Shown here: positions 13,438-52,861 of the stretch, piece by piece
Numbering within the stretch: position 1 is the stretch's first letter
Layout: every line of letters begins with the position of its first letter
Source of the DNA: a virus
Taxonomy: Duplodnaviria; Caudoviricetes
IMG/VR virus record: IMGVR_UViG_3300005670_000019
Strand: one strand, 5' to 3'
DNA: 64,000 bases
The notes under the pieces: model-generated
What the model saw: only the letters and a program-made list of their open reading frames with translations
Told to the model about the DNA's origin: nothing
Databases searched by the model: none
Made by a program: the position numbers and the translations under genes

Positions 13438-14673
13438 TCAATCAAAGAACGGTTGTCCTGAGCGGTACAGATAGTCATAAATTCCACTATCACGTGGATT
13501 GAAATCGGTGGCAGTTGAAGAGGTAGCATACCAGACAGCACGTTGATAACTGGTCGAACCCGAAACAAAAGTGATGGATACCGGAGCATAAATACTTGCT
13601 CCGGTATTTTTGTTTATGGTCGCACAACCTTGGCGTTGCTCTAACATGTCGCGCAAGTAACCAAAATGGGTTCTTGAGAAGCGAGCACCGACTGGCTTGG
13701 CAATGGAGCTTTCAAGCCCATACTTGAAGCCGCGGATGATTGGAACGGAAACGTACGAAGAGTTTGCAAGTGCTGACGACCCAGGTTTGTACTGAAAACC
13801 GAAGGTTGGTTGATATCGTCCAATGTCAATAACGGTCGTTGCTTGAGCGCCTTCATTGACGCCGTTTCTGTTGCTAAGTTTGCCACCATCGCCGATTCCA
13901 TAGAAAGTCTTAGAAAGGTCTTGCCAAGATGGAGAACCAAGTTCTTTTTCTTTCCAAACCAAGGATGATGTTGCAGATGTAATCATTGAACAGAGGAATA
14001 CAGGAATCGAGTTAACAACTGTGTTGCTCTCGGCATAGATTATGAGTCGCGCAAGAAAATTTGAGCCTGATGCTGGGGACACAGGAGTTCCTGAACTATC
14101 AACTGCAAGTCTTTGTTCGACTGCGAGAGAAGCATCTTGACGAAGTGTCTTTTGAAGAAGACGATATTTCGTTTGAAACGGAAATTCATCTCTCCAGTTA
14201 CAGTCAACCCCGTCAAAAGTCGGGTCAGATGAGTCGTCTATTGGGTTTGTGCTATAAGCAATTTCAAACCCCTGTCTTCCAAGTCCTTGAACACCCCAAC
14301 GCTCTCCACCATAAGGAGTTGTTGAAGAAGTAGTAAAAAGAGCCGGAACGGCAGCATTCACTCTCAGAATAGAAACAGGATGTGGGATAAATGTATCAGC
14401 AATGTATTCATCACCGTCAAAAAATGAAGTATTTCTGGTGAAACTTCCAATAAACGATCCTGTTTCGTAAGCAGATCGTAACCAGTATGGAACATAATAG
14501 TCTTGAAAAACGCTAAGATTTAGTCCGTCTATTTTTCCACCGACATCATATCGAGGATCACCACTTATACTTGGAGTTTGATTGAATAGAAAATCACCAA
14601 AGAGAACTCTATCAACAGATGAGCTTTGGAAACTGTTTTTACTTTCAATATCAAACTGGTCGAATACAGGCAT
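13438..14673 (-). CDS. Probable virion/baseplate-associated protein (411 aa)
   Basis: Last gene of the baseplate operon; Ser/Thr/Gly-rich; TAATG coupling. Confidence 0.55.
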   Translation of the reverse strand: MPVFDQFDIESKNSFQSSSVDRVLFGDFLFNQTPSISGDPRYDVGGKIDGLNLSVFQDYYVPYWLRSAYETGSFIGSFTRNTSFFDGDEYIADTFIPHPVSILRVNAAVPALFTTSSTTPYGGERWGVQGLGRQGFEIAYSTNPIDDSSDPTFDGVDCNWRDEFPFQTKYRLLQKTLRQDASLAVEQRLAVDSSGTPVSPASGSNFLARLIIYAESNTVVNSIPVFLCSMITSATSSLVWKEKELGSPSWQDLSKTFYGIGDGGKLSNRNGVNEGAQATTVIDIGRYQPTFGFQYKPGSSALANSSYVSVPIIRGFKYGLESSIAKPVGARFSRTHFGYLRDMLEQRQGCATINKNTGASIYAPVSITFVSGSTSYQRAVWYATSSTATDFNPRDSGIYDYLYRSGQPFFD

Positions 14674-17366
14674 TATTCAATTACCTTTCGAATGGTATTA
14701 GAAGTAAGTATTTGATCAAGTGTTTCGTGATATTCTTTTCCTTCTACAACGTAAGAACCATACAATCTTACCTTGAACTTACCCGGAAGGATAGAAAGTG
14801 TAGGACCACGGTTTACAGATGAAGAAGTGAATGGAAATGCGTCTGTATATTCACTCTTACCAATGTAAGCACCCTGGAATCCAAAGATCAAGTTATCTGT
14901 TGGTTGCAAAACGTAAGGTGTCGCTTGTTGGAGTTTCGGATAAACCTTTTCAGTTCCGGTAAGAACATCGGTGGTGTTGTATCGTTCAATACCAACAACA
15001 TTTCGTAAAAGGTTTCTACTGTCAGCAGAGCCATACTGCCCAACACCTGATCGACCACCATAGCTTCCTGGGTTTTGAATTTCATTATGAGCGCCTGCGA
15101 TAACAGGACCAGGCAAAGTCATTTTGATGCTATCGCCAGGAGCGATAGTTTGAATGGTTCTTTGAATATCTTGAGTTGGATAACATAGGTTTGCAGATCC
15201 GGAAATAACAATGGAACCAGTGTAATCAAACCTAATTCTTTCCCAATCATTATCTTGTCCACATAAGAAATATGGAATATTTCTTGAATTCAAAGCTGAT
15301 TTTGCAGCAATCCAAGCACTATCCGTATCAATGGAAGCTGTTGGAGCTGCCAAGAAAGCAAACTGATTGAATGAAACCAAATCCAATGATGAAGTTGTGG
15401 CAGCAAACGAAACAAGATATTCCGTTTTTACGGAAGTTCCCGAGGCAAGATCAATTGTTGGAGCAATCGTTCCAGAAAAATAGTTTTTCATTTTTCTTTG
15501 ATTCAGAATGAAAAACGTATTGATTGCTTCACCATGAGAACCACCTGTTCCTTGTGCCCAATAATCTCTGGAGAAATGAGAGCAACTGAACTCAACAACG
15601 ACTTTTTCAAGAACGAAAGGTTGTTTGATTTTGTCTGTCAAGGGAATAAGAATAGAAGAAGATCCGGGTGCGTAATTGGATCCAAAGGAATTGTATGGAA
15701 TATGATATTTGTCATCAAATGGAAATCCGAATTCACTGATCGGTGCTTGACTGAAGTATGTTGCATATTGCGAGTTGGCGACGTTCGGAACAAATGGCAA
15801 GAATCCAACAGCCTTATCAGACAAATAGGCTTGGGCGGTGACTTGAGAAGCTTCACTGTCACCTAGAAATCCGACAAAAGTATCATAAATATCTTGGTAG
15901 TAATTCCAACTTCTATTGCTTCCGACTCCCCAAAATGCTTGAGCATCCGGGTTCCAATACATCATCGCATAATCGTTTCCTTCACTATTTCCATTTGAAG
16001 CGGAACGATATCCTACAGAACTTGTATGAAGAACTTCATAATCAAACTCAAGAACAGTCTTTGACCAAAGGGGTTCTTGGAACCCTTCACCAGCATCAAT
16101 GACGGATGATCCTGTAGCGAAAAAATCCAATCCATTTGATTTGCCGTCAGAGGCATATTGATTACCATCAGAAAATGGCAATGTTTCTTTCTCTTCAAAA
16201 AATGAAACAAAACCATCTGCTACATTTACGGTTGCGCGAGCATTTGGAACAATCATTGAAGAAGTGAATTCTGTGCTATTGATCCACTGATTTTGTGTAT
16301 TCAAACCAATAGGGTAAACAACACCACCTTGTTCATCCAAAACCAAGGAAGAGCGACAGTTGTATATCTTCCTAACTTCTTCGGCTGAAAGAGCCTTACC
16401 AAAAATTGCAACTTCGTTCAGATAACCACCCCAGCGATTTGTCTCGGAGTCCGGATTTCTTCCAAACCAAATTGGTTCTGTGATGTTTGCAATCTCAACA
16501 AAAGTTCCAAAAGAAAGATTTTGTGTTGCAAAATCTGTTTCTCCATTTATATAAAGATCCAAAGACGGAGAAGATCCGGAATGATAAACGGCTGCAATAT
16601 GCATCCAGTCATTTTGATTTGAAGAAAATCTTGGAAGATTTTTGATTATAGAAATAGAGCCGCCGGAATTAGAATCGACAACAACGAAAGCAACATAAGG
16701 TGATGCTCCTCCCGCTTCTACACCTCCCATTTGAATGTTGAATTCGTCGGTGCGATAAATAATATATCCTTCTCCATCACCGAAGGCTTCTTCAGGTTTT
16801 ACCCAAACAGTGAAACTCAAATCAGATCTGGATAGATCGATTTGATCTTCTGTGTTTATGAATTGAATATTGAAATTGTCATTATCTTCATGATTATTCC
16901 AAAAAAAACGAGGGGTACGATCAAGTTTTCCAAAAGAATTGAAGTTCAATCCTAAATCGTCTTTTGTGTATGCGTAATCCGGATATTGATTTCTTTGAAT
17001 ACTTGTTGTTATTTGTGTAAACTGCTGATACAGGAAAACACTTCCGGAAACCAAAGCTTCTTCAGCTTGCACACTCAAACACCTCGGCAAGAAACTTGGA
17101 GAAAAATATTCAACTTTGAAGTTTTGTTCAAAAGATTTTGTTCCGGGATTTCCAATTCTTTCCGAAAGGGAATTATCACTATTCATTTTGAAGTAAAGCC
17201 ACAAATCATCTTTCCAAGTATTTGAACTTGAAGGATAAGTCGCAAAAGTAATGGCACTTCGATCGTCCCAAAATGTGTTTGTTGAAGATCCGGCATTCTC
17301 TCTGTTTTGAAGTTGTAGACGCGGAGGCAAACCCTTTGCTCTACTTCGTTTGTTTGAACGTGGCAT
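14673..17366 (-). CDS. LamG/concanavalin-A-like domain virion protein (897 aa)
   Basis: LamG signature: LSFTVWVKP, WMHIAAVY, LYING, GYLNEVAIFGKALSAEEV. Confidence 0.75.
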   Translation of the reverse strand: MPRSNKRSRAKGLPPRLQLQNRENAGSSTNTFWDDRSAITFATYPSSSNTWKDDLWLYFKMNSDNSLSERIGNPGTKSFEQNFKVEYFSPSFLPRCLSVQAEEALVSGSVFLYQQFTQITTSIQRNQYPDYAYTKDDLGLNFNSFGKLDRTPRFFWNNHEDNDNFNIQFINTEDQIDLSRSDLSFTVWVKPEEAFGDGEGYIIYRTDEFNIQMGGVEAGGASPYVAFVVVDSNSGGSISIIKNLPRFSSNQNDWMHIAAVYHSGSSPSLDLYINGETDFATQNLSFGTFVEIANITEPIWFGRNPDSETNRWGGYLNEVAIFGKALSAEEVRKIYNCRSSLVLDEQGGVVYPIGLNTQNQWINSTEFTSSMIVPNARATVNVADGFVSFFEEKETLPFSDGNQYASDGKSNGLDFFATGSSVIDAGEGFQEPLWSKTVLEFDYEVLHTSSVGYRSASNGNSEGNDYAMMYWNPDAQAFWGVGSNRSWNYYQDIYDTFVGFLGDSEASQVTAQAYLSDKAVGFLPFVPNVANSQYATYFSQAPISEFGFPFDDKYHIPYNSFGSNYAPGSSSILIPLTDKIKQPFVLEKVVVEFSCSHFSRDYWAQGTGGSHGEAINTFFILNQRKMKNYFSGTIAPTIDLASGTSVKTEYLVSFAATTSSLDLVSFNQFAFLAAPTASIDTDSAWIAAKSALNSRNIPYFLCGQDNDWERIRFDYTGSIVISGSANLCYPTQDIQRTIQTIAPGDSIKMTLPGPVIAGAHNEIQNPGSYGGRSGVGQYGSADSRNLLRNVVGIERYNTTDVLTGTEKVYPKLQQATPYVLQPTDNLIFGFQGAYIGKSEYTDAFPFTSSSVNRGPTLSILPGKFKVRLYGSYVVEGKEYHETLDQILTSNTIRKVIE

Positions 17367-17369
17367 TCT

Positions 17370-18227
17370 TCACCCTCTCAAAAGACCGGCATATGCGATC
17401 GAATCGGTACCATATCTTGCATTACCAGCATCGATAATGGTTCCTGCTGTAGTTGATTTTACTGTAAATTTCTGTCGAATGTCTTCGCTCAAATCAAAAT
17501 CCAGGCGATTCAGCACAGAAATGAAATCTGAATTTGTGGTATTGATCTGTTTTACAATTTCTTCATCCTTAGTTTCGTCCCAAGGACGAATCAACGTTTC
17601 TTGATAAGCAACATAACCATGAATGGTTATGCCTCCCATAGTCTCTTGACCTTCATCAAGAAAATATCTTACTTGAAGAGGATCTTGGTAGTCTATAAAC
17701 TGTTCAATTCTATTTGAGCGTCTATCAAGAGTTTCAAAGTTGTTTCCATCTTCCAGTGTTCCATGAATTTGTCTTGGAAAGAATGGACCTGAATGGTCTT
17801 TCCTGTAAGGAATCGTCAACGGTTCAATGATTGCCTCCTCCTCAGATTGTGGTCCATCATTGAAATAAATTGGTGTTGGGTAACTGTCTCCAGAGCTCAA
17901 ATAAGCAACAGGGTTGAATTCGGGAAGTTCTTCCCAAATTAGTGAGTTTTCATATTCAACCCATGATCTTGCTTGACCAATTGGATTTGTTCTTGTGTAA
18001 TGACGAATGTTTCCAGACCAAAGTTTTGGTTGAGAGCTTCCGTAAAGTTCACGATATCCTCTAAGTTCCACACCTTGACGATAGGCATCAATTTGTCTTG
18101 TGTTGACTCCTTCACGAGTTGATTCAAACTTCAACACTGCTCGTGCAACAAGAATGGAATCAGTCGCATCATTGAACGGAGTAAATTCCGTTGCAAACTC
18201 CCATTCATTATCAGAAAAAACACTCAT
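17370..18227 (-). CDS. Probable virion structural protein (285 aa)
   Basis: Located inside the baseplate operon; no catalytic motif recognised. Confidence 0.55.
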   Translation of the reverse strand: MSVFSDNEWEFATEFTPFNDATDSILVARAVLKFESTREGVNTRQIDAYRQGVELRGYRELYGSSQPKLWSGNIRHYTRTNPIGQARSWVEYENSLIWEELPEFNPVAYLSSGDSYPTPIYFNDGPQSEEEAIIEPLTIPYRKDHSGPFFPRQIHGTLEDGNNFETLDRRSNRIEQFIDYQDPLQVRYFLDEGQETMGGITIHGYVAYQETLIRPWDETKDEEIVKQINTTNSDFISVLNRLDFDLSEDIRQKFTVKSTTAGTIIDAGNARYGTDSIAYAGLLRG

Positions 18228-18228
18228 A

Positions 18229-21200
18229 TCAATACCTATTCACCTCTCCAACAATTAGGCGGAGAAGGATGGTTGGTTTCAATCCATCTCTATTTGTGTC
18301 ACCAAGATAAGCATCTTCATATTTGTATTGAACTTTTGGTCTTTCCAACATGTGACTTTCAACAACAAAGTTTGTTCCATTATATCTTGTTCTACGAGGA
18401 ATGAGTTGCTCAATAAACATTCCAATGTTAGTATCAAACCATTTGTAAAACTCAAAGAAAGATTTCAAATTCATTCGACCTGTAAGTCGATTGAAATAGA
18501 TTGATCGAAGGTTGTCCAAGCCTGGATAATCAGGGGAAAATTGCAGTTCTGGATTTCCAATCACGTTGTCAAGTTCATTTAGTGTTGCAAAGATTTTTAC
18601 AATATCCTGATTGAGTGCATCAACAATAGAAAAATCTATAGAAAATTTATTGTTGTCGGTCGGTATTTCTGATCTCGGCAAGGAATAAACAGGTGCCGTT
18701 TGTGCTATTGAAGAAGATGCAACATTTTGAAAATCTTGGAATGAACGAACGCGAATTTTTTCAACAGAAACTCCTTCATCAAACTTTGGAGAAATGTAGC
18801 TGTAATAGTACATCTCTGGAACGATGACACTTGAAGTCAAAGGAAAAGCCGAACCAGACCAACCAAAATCACCCTGAGAAAAATCAAAGAGATCCAGTTC
18901 TCCGGTAACGTTTGATTGAGTAACGGCTTGATCTGTCGAAACATCCATTCTCAATTTTTGCCAAGAACCACTTACATTTGTAACGAAACCAAATTGACTT
19001 GATGGATTTTCAACACCAAGTGAGGAAGGATTTCGTACATGTTCAAGCCACTCGTGGTCAGTCAAATATTTCGACCAAAAACGTAGATAGGAAACCTTTC
19101 CAGCAAAGTTGGTTGTAAGAGAAGTCTGATCTCCATCTGCTCCCAAATAGGCTGTTTGATCAATTGAAGAACTTCCAATTGCCAAGAAAGCTCCAGATAC
19201 ATTTGAAGTAGAATCGATCTGCATGTATGGTGGAGGTGATCCAACAGTTGCAGTTAGGAAAGAAGAAGTTTGAAAAACTTGTTCAACTTCGCCAAAGTTC
19301 TGCTTGGCGGCACGAATAAAGAAAGATGAAGAAATTGTGGAATTCAATCCATCATCATTTCTTCGTCTTCCAAAAGAAATGTACCATTTGTCTCCATCAA
19401 AAATATCTGCTCCGGAAAGAAAAAGTGAATCATTCGAAACAACATCATCACTTTGATAAAGGTACAAACCCTGTCCATTTACAGCAACAAGATTCATCAA
19501 TGTTTGTCCAACTCCTTGAGGAGCTGACGAGCCAGTTGTTAGAAATCTAATCAAACTTTGTGATGGGAAGAGTTGAACAGAAAGTGGAGAGAATTTGTAT
19601 GTTCCTTCTATTGTCCAAGAACCCGATGTAAGAAGCGCATCGTTTCCTGCATCACCGGAAATGTATGGGTATCCTGGCTCTGTTCTTGGTGCGGTCAAAT
19701 ATGAACTTTGAACGAAACCTCCGGAAAGGAAGTTCAACATCATCGCACTTTCCGATCTTGTTTCTCTAGAAAATGTTAGTGGGCTTCTATTTGGTCCACC
19801 GTATTCTCTAATACGGAAGTTATTGTCAGGATCAATTCCAACTGTTCTCAAAAACGCTTTGATCGAGTGCAAAGTTCCCTTTGACCTCATAATACTATTG
19901 AGATTTACGAGAATACGGCGCCAAATTTGGTTTTGAACAAATTGTAAGGAACTTTCAGCAGAGGAATATTCCGTATCTAAATCATCTCCATCAATGAATT
20001 GTGAGATTGAAGAATTGGTGAATAATGGAGGAAGTACAATTCCTTCTCTTCTTGCAAAATCTTGTAGAAGTGCATTGGGAACTGTATCGATTGAATTGTA
20101 ATCAATTGCAACAACATTTGAAAATGCTTGCAAATAGAGCTTCATTTCATCAAAGAATTTTGCCCAAAGATACAACATTGAAAGCATTGCTGTTGTATCT
20201 CCCATTTGAGTTGTTCCAGGATTCGATCCAGAAATTAATGGATCAATGATATTTCCATCTTCATTTTCATATCCATAACTCTCTTGAGCTTCCAACAAAT
20301 AATGTTGAGGAATGAGGCGTGTAATAAGGTTTGGATTGTTCTGATCAAAAAAACTTGCAGAGGTGAGAAGGGTTGTTTCAAACTCAACCAATGGAGTGTA
20401 TTTTGGAAAAAGCACAGGGCTGTACAGAGGCTTCTCTAATGTCATTGGGGAAGGACCCGCAATTGAACTTGTCGGAATATCACGAACTCCTAGTTGATAT
20501 CCAGAAAGAGATAGGTTGCCATGAAGGCTGTTCGATGAATGATCCAGAACCAATCTTGTTTGAGAACCGGAAGGTTCATTGAAGCGATAGTAAAGTTTTA
20601 GATCATCTCCAGAAAAGACATTTCTCTTTGAGAACTTTTTCAACTCTTCAACTGTTCTAATATCATGCCAAACACGAAATTCATCAATAGCTCCGGACAA
20701 AGTATTTGAAGGAGTAAATCCAGAAAAAGAAGAACCAGATCCAATGATAAGAACTGAGGAGGTCAGAGGAAATGAATTGAATTCGATTGCAAATGAACTT
20801 GTTGAATTCAATTCTTGGTTTACATAACCATAAATTTGTTGATTACCCGGTGTTCTGTTCCAGATAAATGCGAGATGATTCCACTGTCCCTTATTGAACT
20901 CAATTGTTGTACTGTTTGTGTAACCACCAGAAACAACAAACAAAGTAGAAGAGCCATAGTCTGTTGAGGCTGTCGAGTTTAGAGTGATTGCATAACCAAA
21001 GTTGTCACTAATTTTGTTCAGAATGAACTGATTATCATTTGATTGTGAAGGTGCGAAAAATTGAAACTCAAAAGTCATTGACTTATTTTGAGGCATCAAT
21101 ATGGAGTCACCGGATGTGTTTGAAGATGCATTTGGAAATGTTGCACCTGCAATGTCTTGAGTTGTAACATACGTTCCTCCAGAACCTTCTCCATTGCTTC

Positions 21201-23201: not shown

Positions 23202-23202
23202 A

Positions 23203-25044: not shown

Positions 25045-25046
25045 AA

Positions 25047-25526: not shown

Positions 25527-25528
25527 GA

Positions 25529-25825: not shown

Positions 25826-25828
25826 TTA

Positions 25829-32283: not shown

Positions 32284-32332
32284 TACAATCCTTTTCTATC
32301 TCATATTAGTGCCAGAACTGATTGATGTATCT

Positions 32333-34260: not shown

Positions 34261-34262
34261 GT

Positions 34263-37600: not shown

Positions 37601-37604
37601 GAAA

Positions 37605-44598: not shown

Positions 44599-45632
44599 TG
44601 TTTCTTCTTTTCGTCAACTAGTTTGATCCAATCAAGAATGAACTTCGGGTGTGAAATGTTTTGTTTCTTGAATTTTTCAAAAGAAAGTGATGGTCTGTTT
44701 GACCCATTCCATTTGTCGTGAAAAATCCAACCGCCTGTTTCCTTCTCTAGTCGAAGACCTAACTCAACTATCTCACTGTCTTGCATATCATTCAATGACT
44801 TGTCAGCAAATGGATTCCAGTTCGGATCTCTATTTTCGTTATAAAGTGACTTCCATGAATTGTTCCAAAAATATTTGTATTTCAAAATTTTCTCAGGAAT
44901 AGAATACCAAGAATAATGAAATACGCCTGGAGTATTTTTCATCATTGAAACATAATCATGAACAAGAATTTCTTCATTTGCTTGAAATGGATTTTGTAAA
45001 AAGTTTTGCCTATGAAGTTCAACTTGTTGTGGATATGTTGACATCATTGAAACTGGATTCATTGAAGTATCGATATAATCACATCCGTCTGTTCCGTGCT
45101 TTGCGTACAGAAGTCCGTCTTCAATTTTGATAAGAGCTTTCGGAATACCATGAGTAATGTTCTTGTCGTTTATTGACATTCGCGGCTTCCAAGGATTTAT
45201 GTCAGCACGGATCTTATCTGGACCCCAAAACTCGATCACAGGCAAAATCAAAAGTTTTGGGGAAGTTGGGTTTGCCTGAACTGACGTCAAAAACTGCTGT
45301 GCAATTTCACGAATGATTGGTCCATGGTCTTCATGAACAATCTCATCAGCGTCCATTTGCCAAAGAACATCACCAGTACAATAGCTGCGCGCCATTGCCT
45401 TTGTCTGTCCATCATAAATTCCATGATTTGGTGCGTCCCAAGGAATTTCCACATCCACAATAATCAACTTTGGATCATCAATAGAATTGAGAGCATCAAT
45501 AGTGTCTTGACAATCTGAACTGTCAAGAACCACAACTTCATCACAGAAAGAGAGCATTGATTTGATGCTCTCTAAAAATGGATAACCCATTGATTTTGCA
45601 TTACGTATTGTTGTATAACCAGATAATTTCAT
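44595..45632 (-). CDS. Glycosyltransferase family 2-like
   Basis: LSGYTTIRN..YPFLESIKS..CDEVVVLD, QMDADE, FHYSW. Confidence 0.8.
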   Translation of the reverse strand: MKLSGYTTIRNAKSMGYPFLESIKSMLSFCDEVVVLDSSDCQDTIDALNSIDDPKLIIVDVEIPWDAPNHGIYDGQTKAMARSYCTGDVLWQMDADEIVHEDHGPIIREIAQQFLTSVQANPTSPKLLILPVIEFWGPDKIRADINPWKPRMSINDKNITHGIPKALIKIEDGLLYAKHGTDGCDYIDTSMNPVSMMSTYPQQVELHRQNFLQNPFQANEEILVHDYVSMMKNTPGVFHYSWYSIPEKILKYKYFWNNSWKSLYNENRDPNWNPFADKSLNDMQDSEIVELGLRLEKETGGWIFHDKWNGSNRPSLSFEKFKKQNISHPKFILDWIKLVDEKKKQ

Positions 45633-45638
45633 ATGACC

Positions 45639-46526
45639 TCAAGTGCAGTCTGATGTTCGTTTGAACTGACAATATTTGCAAGAGTTTCTATTTTTCAGAT
45701 AGAGTTTCTTGTTGAGAATGCTCAAATGCTTTTTGAGACTTTCAAGAGCTTTCGTTATTGAACCATCTCCAAGAGAAACAGGAACGATTTCAAAAGGCTC
45801 GGCGTCGGGCTTGACAATTCGCTTTACAAGTACGAACGAACATTTGATATCACTATATGGAACATTGTACTTTTGAGAAAGATAATGCTTATAGAATGCA
45901 AGTTGCTTCAACTTGGCAAAATCTTGTTTCTTTTCCCTTGTCCAACCCCATGAAGTAGTTTTCCAGTCGATAACCAAATAGTAATGACCTTCGGCAGGCT
46001 TCTTACTTCCTTTTCGTGGCTTCTTTGGAAGCTTCAATACACAGTCAATATAACCCTTGAAGAACCTATTCTTCAACTCAGGAACTTCTTCAAAAAGAGG
46101 AATTTCAACTCCAACCACTTCTGCATCTGGATAGTTCTTTTTGAACCATTCTGGAAATGCTGTAAGGGCACGGACAGCAGCCTGGAAGTAATCTTCCACT
46201 TCTTCGTCTTTGTACTCAAGTTCTGTCTCTTTTAGAGCTTCAAGGAACTTTTGTTTTTCCTCAACTTTCTGTTCCTCTGTTTGCATTGGTTCAACAGAGT
46301 TTAGAAGGTAGTTCTCTATGTTTGAGTGAATCATTTTTCCATACGCTGTGTGAATATTACCCTTGTCATTTCCAAGTTTCTTCACATAAACAAGCATATG
46401 CTTCCACGAACATTCTTCATGGACAGTAAGCTCTGAGAACGATGTGTGGGCTTTTTCGGTTGGCAATAGATCAGTTTCATCAATAACCGGCAGATGAACC
46501 TTTTGATCTTTTTCTTGGTTTTCCAT
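45639..46526 (-). CDS. PD-(D/E)XK nuclease, Cas4/AddB-like with probable 4Fe-4S cluster
   Basis: SFSEL...C, YGKMIH, E..KGYID..IDWKT, QLAFY, C-terminal CKYC.....C. Confidence 0.85.
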   Translation of the reverse strand: MENQEKDQKVHLPVIDETDLLPTEKAHTSFSELTVHEECSWKHMLVYVKKLGNDKGNIHTAYGKMIHSNIENYLLNSVEPMQTEEQKVEEKQKFLEALKETELEYKDEEVEDYFQAAVRALTAFPEWFKKNYPDAEVVGVEIPLFEEVPELKNRFFKGYIDCVLKLPKKPRKGSKKPAEGHYYLVIDWKTTSWGWTREKKQDFAKLKQLAFYKHYLSQKYNVPYSDIKCSFVLVKRIVKPDAEPFEIVPVSLGDGSITKALESLKKHLSILNKKLYLKNRNSCKYCQFKRTSDCT

Positions 46527-46534
46527 ATTTCTCT

Positions 46535-46563
46535 ATTCTATCAGATCACAGCAAGGAGTTCAA
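46535..46563 (-). promoter_or_regulatory. Sigma70-type promoter (TTGAAC-17-TAGAAT, extended TG)
   Basis: -35 at 46563-46558, -10 at 46540-46535. Only 8 nt separate the -10 from ATG 46526, so near-leaderless. Confidence 0.6.
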
Positions 46564-47457
46564 TTTGTTCCAAAAAGATAAGGGACGTTCTTTCAAACTA
46601 GCAAGAAGTTCCTCGCCAGATAACTTCGTCCATTCTTCTCCGACATGAAGAACATTTTCATTCAATATAAGATCCAATCCCATCAACTGTGCTTCAATTA
46701 CAATCCTTGGACAAGTATCAAATCCGAGAGGAAGAAAAATCAAACCTTTTCTTTTTGAAAGTTCTTCAATGAATTGATGATACGGTAAGTCACCAAGCAA
46801 GTCATATTTCAATTTAGAACTCTTTGCATACTCAATGGTTTGTTCAGTTCCTTTTATCCAAGAAGCTCCAGTAAGAATTGCCCAATGGTCACTCCTTTCA
46901 GACGTAGAAAGTTGTTTTAGTTTATCTAAATGTTCTGGTTCCCACGTGGAACTTTGTACACTTGAGTTCTTTCCTAGTTCTGGAAATCGTTCAAGATACC
47001 ATTTCCTTTGATTTTCAGACATATAGAACACATGTCTAGCAGATAAGAAAAAGTTCTTCATCCACTGTCCGATAGGACGCATATGACAATCACAACTTTG
47101 ACCTGTTTGAATTTGATGAAGTTGCGGAGAACGGAAAGCGCAATACTTGAAATCATATTCGATTACAAAGTATTTCGTCCCCTGTCGAACCAACTCCTCC
47201 AAGGCTTGAGGATGCATGGAAGAAAAATTGCCAATTATCCATGTTTTATTCTTGTTGTCTCTTACAAACTCTTTTTGTTCCTCAACTGTTTTTTTGGTCG
47301 ATGGTTTGAATTTATAAACAGAAAAAGGCGATGCCTTTAGAATTGCCTCTGTGGTCAATTCGGCACCGCCTCTAAAATCTTCAACAAAAAAGTCAGCTAC
47401 ACAAACTACTTGCTCTTTGACTTCTTGGTTTTTTATTGCGAAATGGTCAGAAAACAT
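46546..47457 (-). CDS. Glycosyltransferase, GT-B-like
   Basis: VADFF..GGAELT, WIKG, DTCPRIVIEAQLMG. Confidence 0.7.
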   Translation of the reverse strand: MFSDHFAIKNQEVKEQVVCVADFFVEDFRGGAELTTEAILKASPFSVYKFKPSTKKTVEEQKEFVRDNKNKTWIIGNFSSMHPQALEELVRQGTKYFVIEYDFKYCAFRSPQLHQIQTGQSCDCHMRPIGQWMKNFFLSARHVFYMSENQRKWYLERFPELGKNSSVQSSTWEPEHLDKLKQLSTSERSDHWAILTGASWIKGTEQTIEYAKSSKLKYDLLGDLPYHQFIEELSKRKGLIFLPLGFDTCPRIVIEAQLMGLDLILNENVLHVGEEWTKLSGEELLASLKERPLSFWNKLNSLL

Positions 47458-49283
47458 CAAACTTGAGCGGAAGTATCTTCCTCTTCCGCTTCCTCCTCAT
47501 TAGGAGGATACCAAATCTTGCTCTCTTGTCCAGGCTTCAAGTCCTTGCGCTTGATATGGAAAATCACAGGAACAGTTCGACCCTTTGCTCCAAAGACTTC
47601 GTACTTTCCGTCTTCCTTTCGATAGAGGATTTCTGCGAATCCAATCGAACGCTCGAAGTCTAGCTCTCCGAAAGTAAAAGTACGCTCTTCGTTGTCAGTC
47701 TTGCGCAGGACATGAAGAGTGGTTCCGTCCTTTTGAAGGACTTCAAACTTTTCATATCCAATACCAACAATATCCTCGGGTTCGATACTGTCGAAAAGTT
47801 GCTGAGTTGCAACAGGATCTTGGACCAAGTTTCCTTCGGAAAAAAGCTGCATTTCAAAATCTGCAAGCTCCATAGTCTTTTCAGTATATGCCTTGTTGTA
47901 CTCATAGGTGGTACGGAAATAGGCGTACTTTTCATCGCTTGGATGCTTCTTGTTCTTGATGAAGTGCTCTTCGCGAATTTGCACGACTTCTTCGGGGTCA
48001 TGCTCCGTACTATTTTCAGTGGTTTGCTCAGGAGCAACACTAACTTCTTGAACGTTTTCTTCACTCATGAGTTCATGATCCTTTTCTTGAGGAGTTTCAC
48101 TCTTTCCTTCAGTATACGATAATGGAGAGGTAATTTCAAGCAAAACGTTCCAGAGGTTACCACTTGAAGTTCTCTTTCTTTCAAATCCTAACTCTTTCAA
48201 TTTCCTCGCAAAAAGCTGAGATTTATAATGGGGTGGGTGCGGTACTCCATAAGTACCAAAAAACTTATCATATTGTTGCATTAGGAAATCTAATGTAACA
48301 TACACTTTAGATGATTTTTGCATTGATCCAAAGAAATGCACATCAAGTTTACGAATCCAGTTTTCGTTTACTTTTTCTTCATTTTTGTTCATGAACTTTA
48401 CATAACCATCCACAACTTTCGAAGGTTCATAATTGTTGTATGGTACATACTTCATTGCAGAAGATGCAATATGACTAAGTTCGTTGTCTGTTATAGTCGA
48501 AGGTTCTTCACAAAGAGATCGATATTTCAGAGCATTGGTCCACATGTCGTTCTTATAAAGAACACCTTTTGCGCGATCAGAAGAAAGTAATCGATGAATT
48601 GTGGTGTTGCGAACCCCATTTGGTATAAGGATGCCTTGATCAAGTCTTGCGCGAATTTCTGGAACGGAAAGTCCTGCCCAATGATGAGCAAGTGGCTTAT
48701 TTTGCTTTCCCGTCCCTTGTCGAACAATCGACCCAGATTTCTTTTCTGTAAAGAACCATTCTGGAAGTTCAGCTATTTCATGATGAGAGTTCTCGTGAAA
48801 GTGATAAACTCCACCTGTTCGGTGTCTGGAGGGTGGAACAACAACATAACCACCAGCTCCGCGAACATCAACTTTTTCTGCGATTGCGGAGATTGAGTTA
48901 TTGACTTGCTTCTTTGAAAAGAACCAAAAATGATGCCCTCCGGAACCCGTTTTGTAATTGAAGGTCTTTGGAAGCTTCGATAGAAGTGGATGAGTTTTTG
49001 TATCAAAATCAAGAACAACAAGGTGCTTTCCAGAAGGAAGTTCTCCTGTGCAAACGCCAAGATTTAGCGTTGTTCCGTATTTCTCATTCCAAGTTTTCAA
49101 CATAGATTTATCAGAAGAAGCAATCTTCTTCCAAGATTTTCTTATTCTTGGATGTTTTCCTGGGGAAATGCATTTCTCATTTCCACAAGTACATTTCCCC
49201 TCGTTGATTGAATGAAGAGGAAGAAAAGATATGCCGTGTTCATCAATCATTTTTGAGAATAGGTGGATGTACTTTTGCATCAT
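47457..49283 (-). CDS. Bifunctional primase/polymerase (Prim-Pol) N-terminal domain protein with C-terminal extension (608 aa)
   Basis: CTCG...C.SPGKHP, NLGVCTG, VVLDFD, TGSGGHHFWF, DVRGAGGYVVVPPS.H..G..Y, LPEW; PriCT-like GVRNTT. Confidence 0.85.
   Translation of the reverse strand: MMQKYIHLFSKMIDEHGISFLPLHSINEGKCTCGNEKCISPGKHPRIRKSWKKIASSDKSMLKTWNEKYGTTLNLGVCTGELPSGKHLVVLDFDTKTHPLLSKLPKTFNYKTGSGGHHFWFFSKKQVNNSISAIAEKVDVRGAGGYVVVPPSRHRTGGVYHFHENSHHEIAELPEWFFTEKKSGSIVRQGTGKQNKPLAHHWAGLSVPEIRARLDQGILIPNGVRNTTIHRLLSSDRAKGVLYKNDMWTNALKYRSLCEEPSTITDNELSHIASSAMKYVPYNNYEPSKVVDGYVKFMNKNEEKVNENWIRKLDVHFFGSMQKSSKVYVTLDFLMQQYDKFFGTYGVPHPPHYKSQLFARKLKELGFERKRTSSGNLWNVLLEITSPLSYTEGKSETPQEKDHELMSEENVQEVSVAPEQTTENSTEHDPEEVVQIREEHFIKNKKHPSDEKYAYFRTTYEYNKAYTEKTMELADFEMQLFSEGNLVQDPVATQQLFDSIEPEDIVGIGYEKFEVLQKDGTTLHVLRKTDNEERTFTFGELDFERSIGFAEILYRKEDGKYEVFGAKGRTVPVIFHIKRKDLKPGQESKIWYPPNEEEAEEEDTSAQV
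48111..48139 (-). promoter_or_regulatory. Internal sigma70-type promoter (TTGAAA-17-TATACT) inside Prim-Pol ORF
   Basis: -35 at 48139-48134, -10 at 48116-48111. Followed by AAGGA and an in-frame ATG at 48068. Confidence 0.6.
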
Positions 49284-49434: not shown

Positions 49435-50283
49435 TTAGACAGATATTCCATACCTTGCATTGAAGTATTGTCTAATATTGGTCTGTTCTTGAGTGCTTAG
49501 TTGTTTGTTGAAAATTACCAACTCTCCAACTTCTCCAAGAGTTTCATCAAACACTCTCATATCAACAGCATTCAAGTTGTTGAAACCAACATTACTTGCA
49601 GATACAGGTGTGTTGTTATTTACTCTTACATAAGCTCTAGAGTCAGCAACATCACGATAGAATTCAACTAAGAATGGTTGATCTATGGAACCAACCGATG
49701 CTGTAACTCTTTGTCCAGTGCTCAGCCATGTAAATCCATAAACAACTGTCTCCACTTCAAACATGTGATATAGACCCCACCACCCTGGTGAATCACCAAC
49801 TATTCTATGATTTGTCCACCAAGAAAGATTTGAATCGGTTGCAGGCAAACGTCGAATTCCAACATAAAACACATGCCACGACGAACCGCCACTTGTACCG
49901 GAAAGATAGGTATTTTGGAGTCCAGCAATTCCATATGAACTGTCACTTTTTGAAACAAATGTTCTTGAGCCGCTTACAACTAATGCAAATGGCGAAGTAT
50001 TTACCCAAGAAACACTTCCGGTTCTTGGTGTCCACGAGATGACATTTCCTGTAACTTCTGCATCATCTCCAACCATCCAAAATGTAAGTGCAGCACTCGA
50101 TGCTTCATCAGGATTTAGTCCGGGATCTACGGGAGGAGTAAGATTTGGCTCGATCCAAGGATCCTCACTTGTAAATCCAATCACCGTTGGAAAGATCGCA
50201 TCATTAGGTGGAAAGGCATCAGTGAATAAAAAGTTGCTTCCACTCGCAGCTAATCTAAATCTGTATAAAGGTCGTTTGATCAT
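49435..50283 (-). CDS. LamG-like / lectin-like virion protein (282 aa)
   Basis: C-terminal GEVGELVIFNKQLS..E...IRQYFNARYGI is typical of phage LamG-like domains. Confidence 0.65.
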   Translation of the reverse strand: MIKRPLYRFRLAASGSNFLFTDAFPPNDAIFPTVIGFTSEDPWIEPNLTPPVDPGLNPDEASSAALTFWMVGDDAEVTGNVISWTPRTGSVSWVNTSPFALVVSGSRTFVSKSDSSYGIAGLQNTYLSGTSGGSSWHVFYVGIRRLPATDSNLSWWTNHRIVGDSPGWWGLYHMFEVETVVYGFTWLSTGQRVTASVGSIDQPFLVEFYRDVADSRAYVRVNNNTPVSASNVGFNNLNAVDMRVFDETLGEVGELVIFNKQLSTQEQTNIRQYFNARYGISV

Positions 50284-52085
50284 GAGCTGAAAATCAAATC
50301 AGAGTTATGGTGAACAATCGCAAGAGAACCTCCGCCAATTGTTCCAGAAACTTGAACTTCAACAAGAATGCTTGAAGTGATTATTGAATTGAGATTTGCA
50401 GAAGTAAGAACAGTTGGAGTTGTACTTGTTGTATTCAATTCAAAAACTCCTGCACCTCCAATTGGAAGATAATAACCATCTGTTATACTGAAAAGGCGAA
50501 GATGTGCTGTGTTTAAAGCATCACTTGTGCTTAGAATGGATCTCATTAGGATAGAGCCAGATTGATGTTCTGAAGATACAATATAGTTTCCCCCAACAGT
50601 TTGAGAGTTTGACTGAGTAACTGTTGTATAGTTTCCAACAGAAACTCTCGTCGGGAAAGATGAACCTCCACCACCACCACCAGTTGCAGCAAGTTGTGTA
50701 AGAGTGTAGCCGCCTGGATTTGAAGTGTCAAAAAATCTTAGATCGTTACCATCTTTTAGGATGTATGTATCATCTGCCCATGCAAGAGCTCCGGAGGTTT
50801 TAATTGAACCTCTAAATGAAGCATACCTTGCTGAAGAACCGGAAGTTATTGAGCCTGAAACTACTAAAAATTCATCATTGTTGGCGGAGTTATAGACAGA
50901 ATCAACTTGATCTGATCTGTCTGTAAGGTAAATCGTTCCATATCGTTCCGCAACAAATGTGTCAGGATCATCATATTTTGTTCCAACTTTCAGTTCGATA
51001 AAACCAGGACTCAAAAATGAATTACCAGCTGCTAAAGAAATTGTGCCAGGAGCACCATGAGTGCTGAAATCTGAACTGCCTCCATTTCCTGCCACAACAA
51101 CAAATCGACCACCGGCTCCAGCAACTTCATCAGTGTTTTCATCATTTCCACCATCTCCAAGATAGAAAGATACATCGCCACCGGCACCTGCATAAATTGG
51201 TCCTGAATTAGCTCCAGCATCACCACCATCACCAGTCTCGACATAGAAATTGCCTCCGGCACCACCGTTACCAGTGCTTCCGGCACCACCATTTCCAGTA
51301 TAAAATTCAACGCCTCCACCTTGTCCACCAGATGGACCACCGGAACCATTTCCGCAGTTGAACGAGAAATTGCCTCCCGAACCTCCTGCACCTTCTACGG
51401 TACCTCCACCAAAACCGGAATAGAATTCAAATCCGCCACCTGTGCCTCCGCCGCCTCCAAAACCAGAATTATCTTGGTTTCCTCCGTCTCCAGCAACAAA
51501 ATAATGCTTTCCGCCCGTACCACCCTTTTTATTTCCTGCTGTTGGACTGTTTCCAGTTCCGGCGTAGTATTCAATATCTCCACCTTGATATCCAATACTT
51601 GTGCCAGGTCCCAAACCAGCGTTACCGGCTCTAAGTTCCAAATTTCCGCCAGATCCAGACACCCCAACATTTGCAGCTCGAACAAGCAAATCTGTAATCA
51701 AACCTACTGAATAGTCAGAAACTTCTGCCATTCCGATCACAACTTCACTTTCCAAGTTTGGAACATTGGAAAACGTCAAAAAATACTGACCAAGAAAAGC
51801 GTTTGATTCCGCAACAGCTATCGTTCCCGAAACTTTTGTGTCTCCACCAAAGACAACAAGACCACCATTTGACTGATCAATTGTTCCTTTCGAACCGGAA
51901 AAGAAAATAAATGTGTCAGCTCCAATAGAACTTGTATTGAAAATTGCAGTGTTGATATTACCTTGGTTTGCCGGGGTTCCATCAGCAGAAATATCATAAA
52001 CCAGCAACTTTGCTGGAGTGCCTGTTGAACCAGACGTAATAAGTTTATTGGTTCTTACTTGTGAAGCTCTGAAATCGTATGCCAT
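50280..52085 (-). CDS. Glycine-rich tail fibre/spike-like protein (601 aa)
   Basis: About nine quasi-repeats of GG-x-[FVI]-x-[FLY]-x-x-G-x-GG; Ser/Thr-rich termini. Confidence 0.6.
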   Translation of the reverse strand: MAYDFRASQVRTNKLITSGSTGTPAKLLVYDISADGTPANQGNINTAIFNTSSIGADTFIFFSGSKGTIDQSNGGLVVFGGDTKVSGTIAVAESNAFLGQYFLTFSNVPNLESEVVIGMAEVSDYSVGLITDLLVRAANVGVSGSGGNLELRAGNAGLGPGTSIGYQGGDIEYYAGTGNSPTAGNKKGGTGGKHYFVAGDGGNQDNSGFGGGGGTGGGFEFYSGFGGGTVEGAGGSGGNFSFNCGNGSGGPSGGQGGGVEFYTGNGGAGSTGNGGAGGNFYVETGDGGDAGANSGPIYAGAGGDVSFYLGDGGNDENTDEVAGAGGRFVVVAGNGGSSDFSTHGAPGTISLAAGNSFLSPGFIELKVGTKYDDPDTFVAERYGTIYLTDRSDQVDSVYNSANNDEFLVVSGSITSGSSARYASFRGSIKTSGALAWADDTYILKDGNDLRFFDTSNPGGYTLTQLAATGGGGGGSSFPTRVSVGNYTTVTQSNSQTVGGNYIVSSEHQSGSILMRSILSTSDALNTAHLRLFSITDGYYLPIGGAGVFELNTTSTTPTVLTSANLNSIITSSILVEVQVSGTIGGGSLAIVHHNSDLIFSS

Positions 52086-52099
52086 GTTTATTCCAATAA

Positions 52100-52861
52100 C
52101 TATTCAAATGCCAATACATGTATTGGACTATTAATTTCTGCACTGCTTGTCAGTATAACATTGTCTGCATCTGCATAGGAACTTGAAAGTTGAACATCGA
52201 TATCTCCATTTCCAAGAGTATCAAACGCTGTAAACAAAACTCTACTAAATGAAGACGTTAATTCTGTGTATGGGATGCTAAACTCATTTCCAGATACCGT
52301 AACAGCATTTGCTGAAACCATGAAGGCGCTTCCTGTAAATGAACTGGTCACCACTACAGGATAAGTTGTAGAGTAGATTGCACGATATCTGATATTGCCT
52401 GCGTATGGTGCTGAGGTTCCAATGTCAAAACCAGTGGTGCTAACAGAAAGACCATAAGCAATGATATTCTCCCAACCTTCTATGTCTGGTTGGTCGGCTG
52501 GTTCTGCAATAGAGAAAACAACGTAGGGTGTTGAAGAAAAAGTAAAATTGAAGGCTTGATATTCATTGTCTGTGAAGTTGAATGAAACAATACCTTCATC
52601 ATATTCTCCAAGTGAAGATGTTGGAGGAGGTTCAGGAGAGCTTGTAATTGGTGTTGCCGCAACAAATAAACTTCCGCCATTGTCAACAACGAAGAAATCT
52701 CTATCCCTTACAATTTTTTGGAAATCAAATGATCTTGTTGTGCCCGAACCAACATCAACAAATGTGTATGTGTCGGGTTTTCTACGAATAAAACCATAGG
52801 TCTTCCTAAACAAATTAGGATTACGACCTATGGTTCTATTGAGACTTTCAGATGTTGGCAT
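52100..52861 (-). CDS. Probable virion protein (253 aa), beta-rich
   Basis: FNFTFSSTPYVVFS..VSTTGF..I.Y.A pattern resembles H-type-lectin-like tail domains. ATATTTAT motif upstream. Confidence 0.5.
   Translation of the reverse strand: MPTSESLNRTIGRNPNLFRKTYGFIRRKPDTYTFVDVGSGTTRSFDFQKIVRDRDFFVVDNGGSLFVAATPITSSPEPPPTSSLGEYDEGIVSFNFTDNEYQAFNFTFSSTPYVVFSIAEPADQPDIEGWENIIAYGLSVSTTGFDIGTSAPYAGNIRYRAIYSTTYPVVVTSSFTGSAFMVSANAVTVSGNEFSIPYTELTSSFSRVLFTAFDTLGNGDIDVQLSSSYADADNVILTSSAEINSPIHVLAFE

Follow-up and report, generated by a model that had tools for sequence, protein, structure and literature searches.

The 64,000-nt window (the whole 64-kb stretch of DNA analyzed here) carries a baseplate operon, a glycosyltransferase (GT) island, and a second cluster of structural-type genes, with every feature described below on the minus strand. 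In the operon, a gp6-like baseplate wedge gene (23203–25050; phrog_219, E = 2e-16) has upstream of it, in the same place as in relatives, a gp25-like wedge gene whose match is weak (25047–25532; PF04965, E = 0.002, under the family cut-off). Adjoining gp6 is the gene for an all-β baseplate protein of 537 aa when read from a TTG codon (21615–23228); translation probably begins at an ATG at 23201 instead, which would yield about 528 aa, as in its homologues. Farther along lie genes for a 1129-aa baseplate protein (18229–21618; Laminin_G_3, PF13385, E = 7e-14) with homologues in Mel-JY01, G001, and LR756508 detected by tblastn, a 285-aa protein (17370–18227), an 897-aa baseplate/fiber protein (14673–17366; Laminin_G_3, PF13385, E = 4e-17), and, at the distal end of the operon, a 411-aa structural protein without a Pfam or PHROG match (13438–14673). 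The second cluster encodes proteins of 282 aa (49435–50283), 601 aa (50280–52085; Gly-rich core, 20% Gly), and 253 aa (52100–52861). PHROGs and NCBIfam gave no matches for the motif-rich proteins described next or for the unannotated ORFs of the island, and Rfam and tRNA scans of the window returned none.

Seven of these proteins are rich in the tripeptide [ST][GAS]S, usually flanked by hydrophobic residues. It occurs 19 times in the 1129-aa protein (6.4 expected), 14 times in the 897-aa protein (4.1 expected), 11 times in the 537-aa protein (3.3 expected), 7 times in the 411-aa protein (2.7 expected), 5 times in the 282-aa protein (1.4 expected), and 7 times, as the TSS type, in the 253-aa protein (1.9 expected); the 601-aa protein holds six SGS against 1.6 expected. 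The by-eye SGS counts of the initial annotation were exact (7 in 18229–21618, 6 in 50280–52085, 4 in 21615–23228, 3 in 14673–17366, and 2 each in 13438–14673 and 49435–50283), as was its observation that the gp6-like wedge contains no SGS. That wedge lacks the motif entirely (0 against 1.7 expected), as do the gp25-like protein and the 285-aa protein (0 against 0.55 expected), the latter providing an internal contrast within the same operon. Pooled over the seven proteins, which were picked after the motif had been seen (a choice offset in part by the unpreselected tripeptide scan and the genome-wide scans below), SGS occurs 24 times against 5.3 expected (z = 8.1) and [ST][GAS]S 71 times against 25.0 (z = 9.3). 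Neither value was attained in 2000 shuffles of whole proteins, bearing out the enrichment over composition-shuffled controls that had been proposed, and the remaining 45 ORFs of the window hold 27 motifs against 27.4 expected.

The Ser content of the carriers (11–13%) and the choice of the motif by eye would fit a compositional or sampling artifact of Ser/Gly-rich proteins picked post hoc. Shuffles confined to blocks of 10, 20, or 40 residues nevertheless still gave z values of 8–9, with 0 of 500 attaining the observed count, and the permuted tripeptides SSG (1 against 5.2 expected) and GSG (6 against 5.0) show no excess in the seven proteins. When all 8000 tripeptides were scored with no preselection, TSS ranked first (22 against 4.3) and SGS second (24 against 5.3), each with p of about 1e-9, and the pattern was replicated in 36 loci and four whole genomes. 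The artifact reading is effectively refuted, and the excess of [ST][GAS]S in this window is confirmed. Because the 71 sites fall in 59 distinct 9-mers, the signal resides at the protein level, and a DNA-level repeat as the origin of the motif is ruled out. Paralogy or a single inherited repeat was likewise rejected, as the carriers are non-homologous (no paralogy among them by BLAST) and the spacing is irregular, with gaps of 1–149 residues, sites dispersed in folded domains, and densities up to about one per 40 residues; this irregularity also speaks against a periodic structural repeat.

The specificity of the motif was resolved with 50 proteins (32,225 aa) from nine related genomes, in which SGS is enriched 6.2-fold (183 against 29.6 expected, p = 3e-80), TGS 5.7-fold, SAS 3.6-fold, TAS 3.2-fold, and TSS 2.4-fold. 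In the same set, the values were 1.0-, 0.5-, and 0.7-fold for the position 1 variants AGS, GGS, and NGS, 1.0-fold for the middle-position variants STS and TTS and 0.6-fold for SNS, and 1.3-, 1.6-, 0.5-, and 0.8-fold for the position 3 variants SGT, SGA, SGG, and SGN. The rule is sharp: Ser or Thr at position 1, Gly over Ala over Ser at position 2, and Ser only at position 3, a strictness at the last position that is unlike a generic turn.

The window belongs to a large clade of aquatic myoviruses, among whose members are Flavobacterium phage immuto and Microcystis phage Mel-JY01 as well as uncultured relatives in the thousands, their contigs reaching ~360 kb; its cultured members are immuto (host Flavobacterium sp. 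LMO8), Mel-JY01 (Microcystis), and RM378 (Rhodothermus marinus). Across 36 loci of this lineage, the sequences downstream of gp6 hold 2028 [ST][GAS]S against 448 expected (4.5-fold), with 573 SGS against 74, and the ORFs upstream of gp6 hold 83 against 85.8 (0.97-fold). Genome-wide, enrichment is seen in 12 of 143 ORFs of the relative G001 and 9 of 119 ORFs of immuto, with all remaining ORFs at 1.05–1.1-fold. Enriched ORFs in relatives include fiber proteins with collagen and Peptidase_S74 domains and annotated tail spikes, and the gp23-like capsid protein of G001 is absent from that genome's enriched set. Baseplate modules of six unrelated myoviruses, drawn from an annotated phage collection since a T4 gp6 search gave only close T4 relatives, showed 0.73–1.43-fold; the motif is therefore not generic to myovirus baseplates. 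These data support a highly specific, lineage-wide motif limited to a subset of proteins, namely those of the peripheral baseplate, the fibers, and other parts of the structural module. One immuto tail spike (97614–100775) carries 53 [ST][GA]S sites.

The island has motif-rich genes on both flanks. At one end lie the genes for two GT4 glycosyltransferases, both soluble: GT4-B (29634–30797; PF00534, E = 3e-9) and GT4-A (30787–32283; PF00534), the latter a retaining-type GT-B/GT4 enzyme. They are followed by a nucleotide-sugar tailoring block (32333–40752), in which Pfam identifies a GDP-mannose 4,6-dehydratase, two further SDR epimerase/dehydratases, a DegT aminotransferase, a GNAT protein, an FdtA-like protein, and two methyltransferases among unannotated ORFs. 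Beyond it are a GT2 glycosyltransferase (42813–43562; PF00535, E = 6e-31) and a probable GT2-like enzyme (44595–45632), for which the ESM Atlas feature score is 0.99 and the structural TM score 0.82 to viral clusters with PF00535, and which is 40% identical to an ORF of the relative G003. A probable divergent GT (40740–41768), put forward as a lead only, lacks Pfam, PHROG, and NCBIfam matches, and its nearest ESM Atlas clusters are putative GTs, some with PF00534 (score 0.94–0.98). The conserved upstream end of the module is marked by a PD-(D/E)XK nuclease (45639–46526; PF12705), found directly upstream of GT4-A in immuto, Mel-JY01, G001, G003, and LR756508. The initial annotation had counted about ten GTs, an overestimate given that Pfam confirms three (GT4, GT4, and GT2) and the ESM Atlas makes two more probable; the GT-D enzyme that it invoked finds no counterpart, as no island protein has a DUF1792 domain by Pfam.

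Both GT4-A and GT4-B are generic GT4s, with no GtfA/GtfB equivalog match and neither DUF1975 nor DUF1792. The AF2 model of GT4-A (pLDDT 82) shows an ordinary GT-B fold with MshA, chlorovirus B736L, and BshA as its nearest folds, and its nearest solved relatives (MshA, BshA, and sucrose-phosphate synthase) act on small molecules. When a GT4-A profile was compared with the PDB, B736L was the best match by sequence (E = 4e-5) and third by fold (TM 0.61/0.75), a similarity that is generic to GT4 enzymes. NCBIfam, PDB profile, and fold comparisons revealed no hallmark of protein O-glycosyltransferases in GT4-A. Partial C-terminal matches of the G001 GT4-B to GTs of Arthrobacter siphoviruses likewise reflect generic GT4 similarity and are noted as a lead only.

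Two other targets were considered for the island. DNA glycosylation of the T4 α/β-GT type is argued against by LC-UV-MS/MS of digested DNA from the relative immuto, which has orthologous GT4-A and GT4-B and in which only dA, dC, dT, and fdPreQ1 were detected, with no glycosylated nucleoside (PMC10516641). No protein from 29634 to 47460 has a transmembrane-like segment, and this lack of membrane proteins speaks against a lipid-linked envelope polymer. Pfam also finds in the island none of the parts of O-antigen or envelope conversion (Gtr-type proteins, Wzx/Wzy, or an initiating phosphoglycosyltransferase).

The adjacent soluble GT4-A/GT4-B pair belongs to the core genes of the lineage. Among 50,697 phage records, GT4-A was found only in immuto, Mel-JY01, LR756508, and RM378. 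GT4-A homologues are 58–67% identical. Full-length GT4-B orthologues (29–39% identity) occur in immuto, Mel-JY01, G001, and G003, and RM378 encodes a divergent GT4-B homologue adjacent to GT4-A (hhalign 96%, E = 5e-9) that, used as a probe, retrieved no additional phages. The conservation of GT4-A/B in phages of hosts as different as Bacteroidota-type bacteria (Flavobacterium and Rhodothermus) and Cyanobacteria argues for a phage-intrinsic acceptor. GT4-B and the motif occur together in the window clade, immuto, Mel-JY01, G001, and G003; in RM378, which also has GT4-B, the signal is modest, with enrichment in 6 of 131 ORFs. In LR756508, gp6, a relative of the 1129-aa protein, and a GT4-A in syntenic position are all present, yet GT4-B is missing, and none of the 352 ORFs is enriched. 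In Sf-FS3, D479, and PX29, neither a PF00534 GT above cut-off nor motif enrichment was found.

GT4-B tracks the motif in two contrasts (both present in RM378, neither in LR756508), although these represent few independent events and the loss of some different lineage-specific gene from LR756508 would fit equally well. In LR756508 the motif is missing, but GT4-A persists, as do a GT29-like enzyme and genes for sugar nucleotides. The whole cluster is therefore not tied to the motif, and at least part of the glycan machinery has another target. If any enzyme of the cluster is tied to the motif, GT4-B is the candidate by its phyletic pattern, and the link between motif and glycosyltransferase is circumstantial but improved. 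A motif that behaves as a recognition site could instead serve a different Ser modification (phosphorylation, acylation, or a phospho-sugar) made by some phage or host enzyme, the co-occurrence with GT4-B being coincidental; in a proteomic study of marine phage virions, structural proteins of other phages were reported to be phosphorylated and acetylated (PMC12014285). We regard this as improbable, given that no kinase or acyltransferase of fitting phyletic pattern was seen in the window, that GT4-B follows the motif in both contrasts, and that G001 and Mel-JY01 have GT genes set in the midst of motif-rich ones, with a fused GT4+GT9 enzyme directly between motif-rich structural genes.

The family of the 537-aa protein, with hundreds of homologues, shows how the sites evolve. 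The motif class is retained at 7 of its 11 sites in 58–100% of homologues, with middle-residue swaps remaining among the small residues Gly, Ala, and Ser, and each homologue carries 6–14 motifs against 1.3–3.8 expected. At least one homologue holds the motif at each of 47 different columns, and with the conserved columns set aside the enrichment still stands at 2.1-fold; sites turn over, and motif numbers are kept. The AF2 model of the protein (pLDDT 80.9) is a β-sandwich with a CBM-like fold. The expectation that the motifs would map to exposed turns is borne out in part by DSSP secondary structure, with 8 of 11 sites in loops, in hairpin turns, or where a strand ends, and the remaining 3 in the last few residues of long strands.

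Such placement, together with the hydrophobic flanks, the small middle residue, and the β-rich, LamG/CBM-like character of the carriers, is what would be expected if the motif were a structural or assembly element, either a strand-end/hairpin feature of β-sandwich and fiber domains or a chaperone signal, with the GT island serving an envelope intermediate or a small molecule. The resemblance of GT4-A to small-molecule GT4s and the persistence of GTs without the motif in LR756508 point the same way. A turn element would, however, rarely demand Ser alone at position 3, to the exclusion of Thr, Asn, Gly, and Ala, and Ser or Thr alone at position 1. Nor would it readily explain a motif that recurs in non-homologous proteins, turns over at constant count with enrichment beyond conserved columns, and is not enriched in unrelated myovirus baseplates or in LR756508, despite a homologous baseplate protein there. 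We consider this reading unlikely, though deserving of serious weight. The unmodified motif might also act directly. Side chains i and i+2 of a strand project in the same direction, and hydroxyl arrays at exposed strand ends of receptor-facing proteins, at up to about one site per 40 residues, could bind host glycans, other polysaccharides, or water or ice, much as Thr-x-Thr ladders do in ice-binding proteins. The irregular spacing gives no sign of an ordered ladder, position 3 does not admit Thr, the residue that known ladders favor, and the association with GT4-B would be left unexplained; we judge direct binding very improbable.

Since the motif excess is found only in phages with GT4-B, the motif is probably the attachment site of a phage-made sugar coat. 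The reading that we prefer takes [S/T]-[G>A>S]-S as a short recognition sequence under selection in surface-facing baseplate, fiber, and other accessory structural proteins, where it would be a sequon whose serine accepts an O-linked glycan in the cytoplasm. The first sugar would come from a soluble phage GT, GT4-B being the best candidate, possibly with the adjacent GT4-A. Enzymes of the variable rest of the island would provide the sugars and lengthen the chain through a GDP-mannose-derived deoxy- or amino-sugar pathway, N-acetylation, O-methylation, and further GT2/GT4 enzymes, and tail and fibers of the assembled virion would be covered by a phage-specific glycan, with a putative role in shielding or adhesion. 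That the motif is an acceptor sequon for a phage-made O-glycan, with GT4-B as the best candidate writer, we place at about an even chance. The fuller proposal of a phage-encoded, sequon-directed, cytoplasmic, Ser-specific O-glycosylation system, with a conserved GT4 writer, a serotype-like variable island, and a "glycocalyx" on the host-recognition apparatus, is put slightly below even. As first advanced, the sequon and glycan-coat idea keeps its core, a specific lineage-wide motif co-occurring with a conserved soluble phage GT module, and loses its likeness to GtfA/B and GT-D along with the ten or so GTs. A literature search found no glycoproteomic or glycan-staining data on virions of this lineage.

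To our knowledge, only some actinobacteriophages are established as glycosylating their virions with enzymes of their own, and no acceptor rule is known. If the proposal is correct, glycosylated phage proteins would become predictable from sequence alone, and phage genes labeled "LPS biosynthesis" or auxiliary metabolic would need reinterpretation in an abundant aquatic clade. It would also add a layer to host recognition, defense evasion, and particle stability, and offer a soluble Ser-specific tool for protein glycosylation. Because three members are cultured (immuto, Mel-JY01, and RM378), the hypothesis is directly testable.

Several known systems offer partial parallels. As in GtfA/GtfB, which O-GlcNAcylates the serine-rich-repeat (SRR) adhesins of streptococci, two GT4-type genes are adjacent, and the acceptor proposed here is a Ser in small-residue contexts such as S-A-S or T-S-A-S. 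A GtfA/GtfB-like pair was nonetheless rejected, with NCBIfam giving only weak generic GT4 matches far under cut-offs, no DUF1975, and GtfA outside the top 50 fold matches; the window lineage also has dispersed single tripeptides in folded β domains rather than long low-complexity SRR tracts. Chloroviruses and giant viruses (PBCV-1; NY-2A B736L) similarly encode soluble GTs and nucleotide-sugar enzymes, including a GDP-mannose 4,6-dehydratase, that are independent of host membranes. Chlorovirus glycans, however, are N-linked and sit on the major capsid protein, and the acceptor proposed here is Ser on tail proteins.

Mycobacteriophages, too, carry GTs near structural genes, which there decorate the phage's own virion proteins and here would putatively do so. 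According to Freeman et al. 2023, as relayed in PMC12619734, mycobacteriophage glycans are located at the C-termini of capsid and tail-tube subunits, whereas the present lineage has its putative sites, dozens of them, at internal tripeptides in baseplate and fiber proteins, with the G001 capsid not enriched; the hosts also differ, these being large myoviruses of Gram-negative aquatic bacteria.

A further parallel is found in the bacterial autotransporter heptosyltransferase systems TibC/TibA and Aah/AIDA-I, where the enzyme, of the GT-B type and soluble in the cytoplasm, hyperglycosylates a β-rich surface adhesin at many of its serines. TibC and Aah modify Ser and not Thr in small-residue contexts such as QNSGG and NTSAA (PMC4358343), a rule reminiscent of the position 3 Ser of the candidate acceptor, where the preference is statistical (SGT 1.3-fold against SGS 6.2-fold). 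G001, G003, and Mel-JY01 moreover carry a GT9 heptosyltransferase-family domain fused to GT4, adjoining motif-rich fiber genes. In contrast, no window protein has a GT9 domain (PF01075), the GT4+GT9 fusion is absent in immuto, and the donor pathway of the window is GDP-mannose-derived rather than based on ADP-heptose, with no heptose-pathway family detected by Pfam. The candidate writer here is a GT4, its substrates would be phage baseplate and fiber proteins instead of autotransporter β-helices, and the tripeptide rule here differs from theirs and is better defined.

Seven proteins of the window (13438-14673, 14673-17366, 18229-21618, 21615-23228, 49435-50283, 50280-52085 and 52100-52861) carry a real and strong excess of the tripeptide [ST][GAS]S. 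The initial annotation had counted SGS by eye in such proteins and proposed an enrichment; every count was exact on recount, and shuffled controls bore the enrichment out (SGS, 24 vs 5.3 expected; [ST][GAS]S, 71 vs 25; reached by 0 of 2000 shuffles). The remaining 45 window ORFs hold 27 motifs vs 27.4 expected, and permuted tripeptides are not enriched in the seven proteins (SSG, 1 vs 5.2; GSG, 6 vs 5.0). Because z stays at 8-9 when shuffling is confined to blocks of 10, 20 or 40 residues, local Ser/Gly-rich patches do not account for the signal. TSS and SGS ranked first and second in a scan of all 8000 tripeptides, TSS being unusually strong in the window (4.9x vs 1.1-3.9x elsewhere). The 71 sites lie in 59 different 9-mers; selection therefore acts at the protein level. 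Hydrophobic residues occupy the flanking positions (-3 to -1 and +1) of 55-62% of the window motifs, vs a background of 39%.

Among the carriers, the 601-aa protein (50280-52085, minus strand; 20% Gly overall) has a very Gly-rich, GGxGG-like center of ~250 residues with only short G-x-y runs, and is not collagen-like by Pfam. A 248-aa protein (62960-63706, minus strand; 15.7% Ser) with low-complexity Ser/Asn/Pro tracts has a count of 5 vs 2.2 that SSS runs, not the [ST]GS rule, explain.

The window has a GC content of ~38% and nearly all of its genes on the minus strand. The gp25-like and gp6-like wedge genes (25532-23203) lead into the next five large genes (23228-13438), and an ~18 kb sugar-gene island (47460-29634) lies upstream of them. 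Past the island there is a PrimPol gene, along with three further genes that look structural (52861-49435) and a PIN-PhoH fusion. The closest cultured phages, Flavobacterium phage immuto and Microcystis phage Mel-JY01, and the uncultured 484 kb genome LR756508 share only ~30% gp6 identity with the window. Homologues of the gp6-adjacent protein and of the island glycosyltransferase GT4-A (30787-32283) run from hundreds into the thousands, with contigs reaching ~340-365 kb. The window phage belongs to an extensive clade of large aquatic myoviruses.

The motif is a property of this lineage. In immuto and Mel-JY01, almost all proteins encoded downstream of gp6 are enriched; gp6 and the nonstructural proteins are not. 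Across 36 related viral contigs, spanning gp6 identities from 57% down to 32%, downstream proteins hold 2028 motifs vs 448 expected (4.5x) and 573 SGS vs 74 (7.7x), and ORFs upstream of gp6 at the same loci hold 83 vs 85.8. Baseplate modules of six unrelated myoviruses (T4, Aeromonas PX29, Vibrio D479, Dickeya phiDP23.1 and two cyanomyoviruses) reach only 0.73-1.43x, and the T4 long tail fibers 14 vs 12.5. Whole-genome scans found enriched ORFs in the complete 166 kb related genome G001 (12/143), immuto (9/119) and Mel-JY01 (14/176), with all other ORFs at 1.05-1.13x. Beyond the baseplate module, those of G001 include fiber proteins with collagen repeats and Peptidase_S74, adjoining a gp23-like capsid gene.

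A specificity matrix pooled from 50 proteins of nine lineage genomes defines the sequence rule. SGS tops all tripeptides at an observed/expected ratio of 6.2 (183 vs 29.6, p 3e-80), followed by TGS (5.7), SAS and TAS (3.6 and 3.2), and TSS and SSS (2.4 and 1.8). Position 1 requires Ser or Thr (AGS, GGS and NGS at 1.0, 0.5 and 0.7), position 2 does not tolerate Thr (STS and TTS at 1.0; SNS at 0.6), and position 3 requires Ser (SGT, SGA, SGG and SGN at 1.3, 1.6, 0.5 and 0.8). Preferred neighbors in this pool are I or V before the motif and F, L, Y, A or G after it.

A single inherited structural repeat is not the source of the motif: BLAST found no paralogy among the carriers, and gaps between motifs vary irregularly from 1 to 149 residues. 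In the family of the 537-aa protein (21615-23228), represented by 33 homologues of 45-98% identity, 7 of the 11 window sites retain the motif class in 58-100% of homologues, with G, A and S interchanging at the middle residue (site 83: TSS 17, TAS 8, TGS 7). Each homologue has 6-14 motifs vs 1.3-3.8 expected; the motif occurs in at least one sequence at 47 different columns, and the excess is still 2.1x outside ten conserved columns. An AlphaFold2 model of this protein (pLDDT 80.9) predicts a chain of β-sandwich/CBM-like domains. By its DSSP string, which describes secondary structure only, eight sites would fall where strands end, in two-residue hairpin turns or in short loops, and the other three in the final few residues of long strands.

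The island had been credited with about ten glycosyltransferases (GTs). A GT cluster is present, but the number was an overcount: Pfam identifies two GT4 enzymes, GT4-A and the adjacent GT4-B (29634-30797), and one GT2 (42813-43562), and two unannotated ORFs resemble divergent GTs in the ESM Atlas. No GT-D (DUF1792) domain was found in the island. Pfam also assigns a GDP-mannose 4,6-dehydratase, two further SDR epimerase/dehydratases, a DegT aminotransferase, a GNAT, an FdtA-like protein and two methyltransferases; NCBIfam and PHROGs gave no family for five other unannotated ORFs. An IMPDH/GMP-reductase-family gene (43555-44598, minus strand) lies inside the island; it is conserved beside a PD-(D/E)XK gene in Mel-JY01 and is also present in LR756508. 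The GT4-A model is a plain GT-B fold (pLDDT 82) nearest to MshA, chlorovirus B736L, BshA and sucrose-phosphate synthase, with B736L also the top PDB match by sequence (E 4e-5). NCBIfam yields no GtfA/GtfB equivalog, and nothing in the sequence or predicted fold marks the GT4 enzymes specifically as protein O-glycosyltransferases.

GT4-A and GT4-B orthologues are full-length, adjacent and in the same order in immuto, Mel-JY01, G001 and the related genome G003 (29-39% identity), preceded by a PD-(D/E)XK gene as in the window. Of 50,697 phage records, only four carry GT4-A (immuto, Mel-JY01, LR756508 and Rhodothermus phage RM378), and BLAST detects GT4-B in just the first two of these. GT4-A is more conserved than the baseplate protein (58-67% vs 45-52%), and matching contig sizes suggest that both sit on the same large contigs. 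Genome-wide searches of three controls (Sf-FS3, D479 and PX29) brought up no PF00534 GT above cutoff.

In RM378, whose gp6 is beyond the reach of BLAST, the unannotated ORF next after GT4-A is a divergent GT4-B (hhalign 96%, E 5e-9, 342 columns). This gene (L104:10616-11893; Rm378p014, "hypothetical protein") has the SGYG, WG and DRKNT signatures common to the lineage GT4-B, and 6/131 RM378 ORFs, clustered at 64.8-78.5 kb, are motif-enriched vs 1.3 by chance. LR756508 has a related gp6, a homologue of the 1129-aa Laminin_G_3 baseplate protein (18229-21618) and a syntenic PD-(D/E)XK-GT4-A pair; GT4-B is absent, 0/352 ORFs are enriched (1.39x overall), and the baseplate module is marginal (8 vs 3.9). 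The baseplate fold therefore does not demand the motif, and GT4-B predicts it where GT4-A alone does not. The contrasts are few in number, and statistically they are not independent of losses of other genes. After GT4-A, LR756508 carries genes for a cytidylyltransferase and a GT29 sialyltransferase-like enzyme (L153:8060-9877), which suggest a sialic-acid-type or related nonulosonic-acid glycan in a phage without the [ST]GS motif.

The best single explanation of the motif is that it may serve as a glycosylation sequon, a reading evenly balanced in our judgment. The GTs could instead glycosylate DNA, but a digest of DNA from immuto, not the window phage, yielded only dA, dC, dT and fdPreQ1 by LC-UV-MS/MS (PMC10516641). 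Synthesis of an envelope polymer is likewise argued against, as the island holds no membrane components (no island protein has transmembrane-like segments) and the GT4 pair has been conserved in phages with unrelated hosts. Neither the DNA-chemistry nor the envelope argument amounts to proof for the window phage. A literature search found no paper on this motif or on glycosylation in this clade; a 2025 study of a large aquatic phage lineage reports four core GT orthogroups whose target is not known (PMC12619734).

For the sequon reading, further enzymes lie beside motif-rich genes. G001 encodes a 767-aa GT4+GT9 fusion (L126:11351-13654) between motif-rich fiber genes. Mel-JY01 has a 1226-aa GT4+GT9 protein (L136:4750-8430) whose annotation reads FkbM methyltransferase. 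On its flanks lie a motif-rich "structural protein" (14 vs 3.2) and other enriched ORFs; the nearby terminase, portal and other head-morphogenesis genes show no enrichment. G003 has a 1055-aa frame matching GT4, GT9 and GT2. GT9 is the heptosyltransferase family. TibC/Aah-type enzymes, which hyperglycosylate serines, not threonines, of β-rich adhesins, have a catalytic domain resembling the GT-B heptosyltransferase WaaC (PMC4358343).

Several other features of the window were noted. The segment 8600-13433 breaks the minus-strand structural region with a GC content of 46-51% (vs ~38%) and short overlapping ORFs on both strands, without Rfam or tRNA matches. A lower-GC region (34-38%) holds a pair of very large ORFs (1349 and 812 aa; 1114-7612, minus strand) that match no Pfam family and, unlike the adjoining baseplate proteins, show no motif enrichment (5 vs 4.4; 1 vs 2.1). 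A 468-aa ORF (55273-56679, plus strand) has no Pfam match at E ≤ 0.01. The PIN nuclease-PhoH fusion (PF13638 and PF02562; 52917-54281, minus strand) adjoins the second motif-rich cluster, and PhoH is conserved also in immuto, Mel-JY01 and G001.
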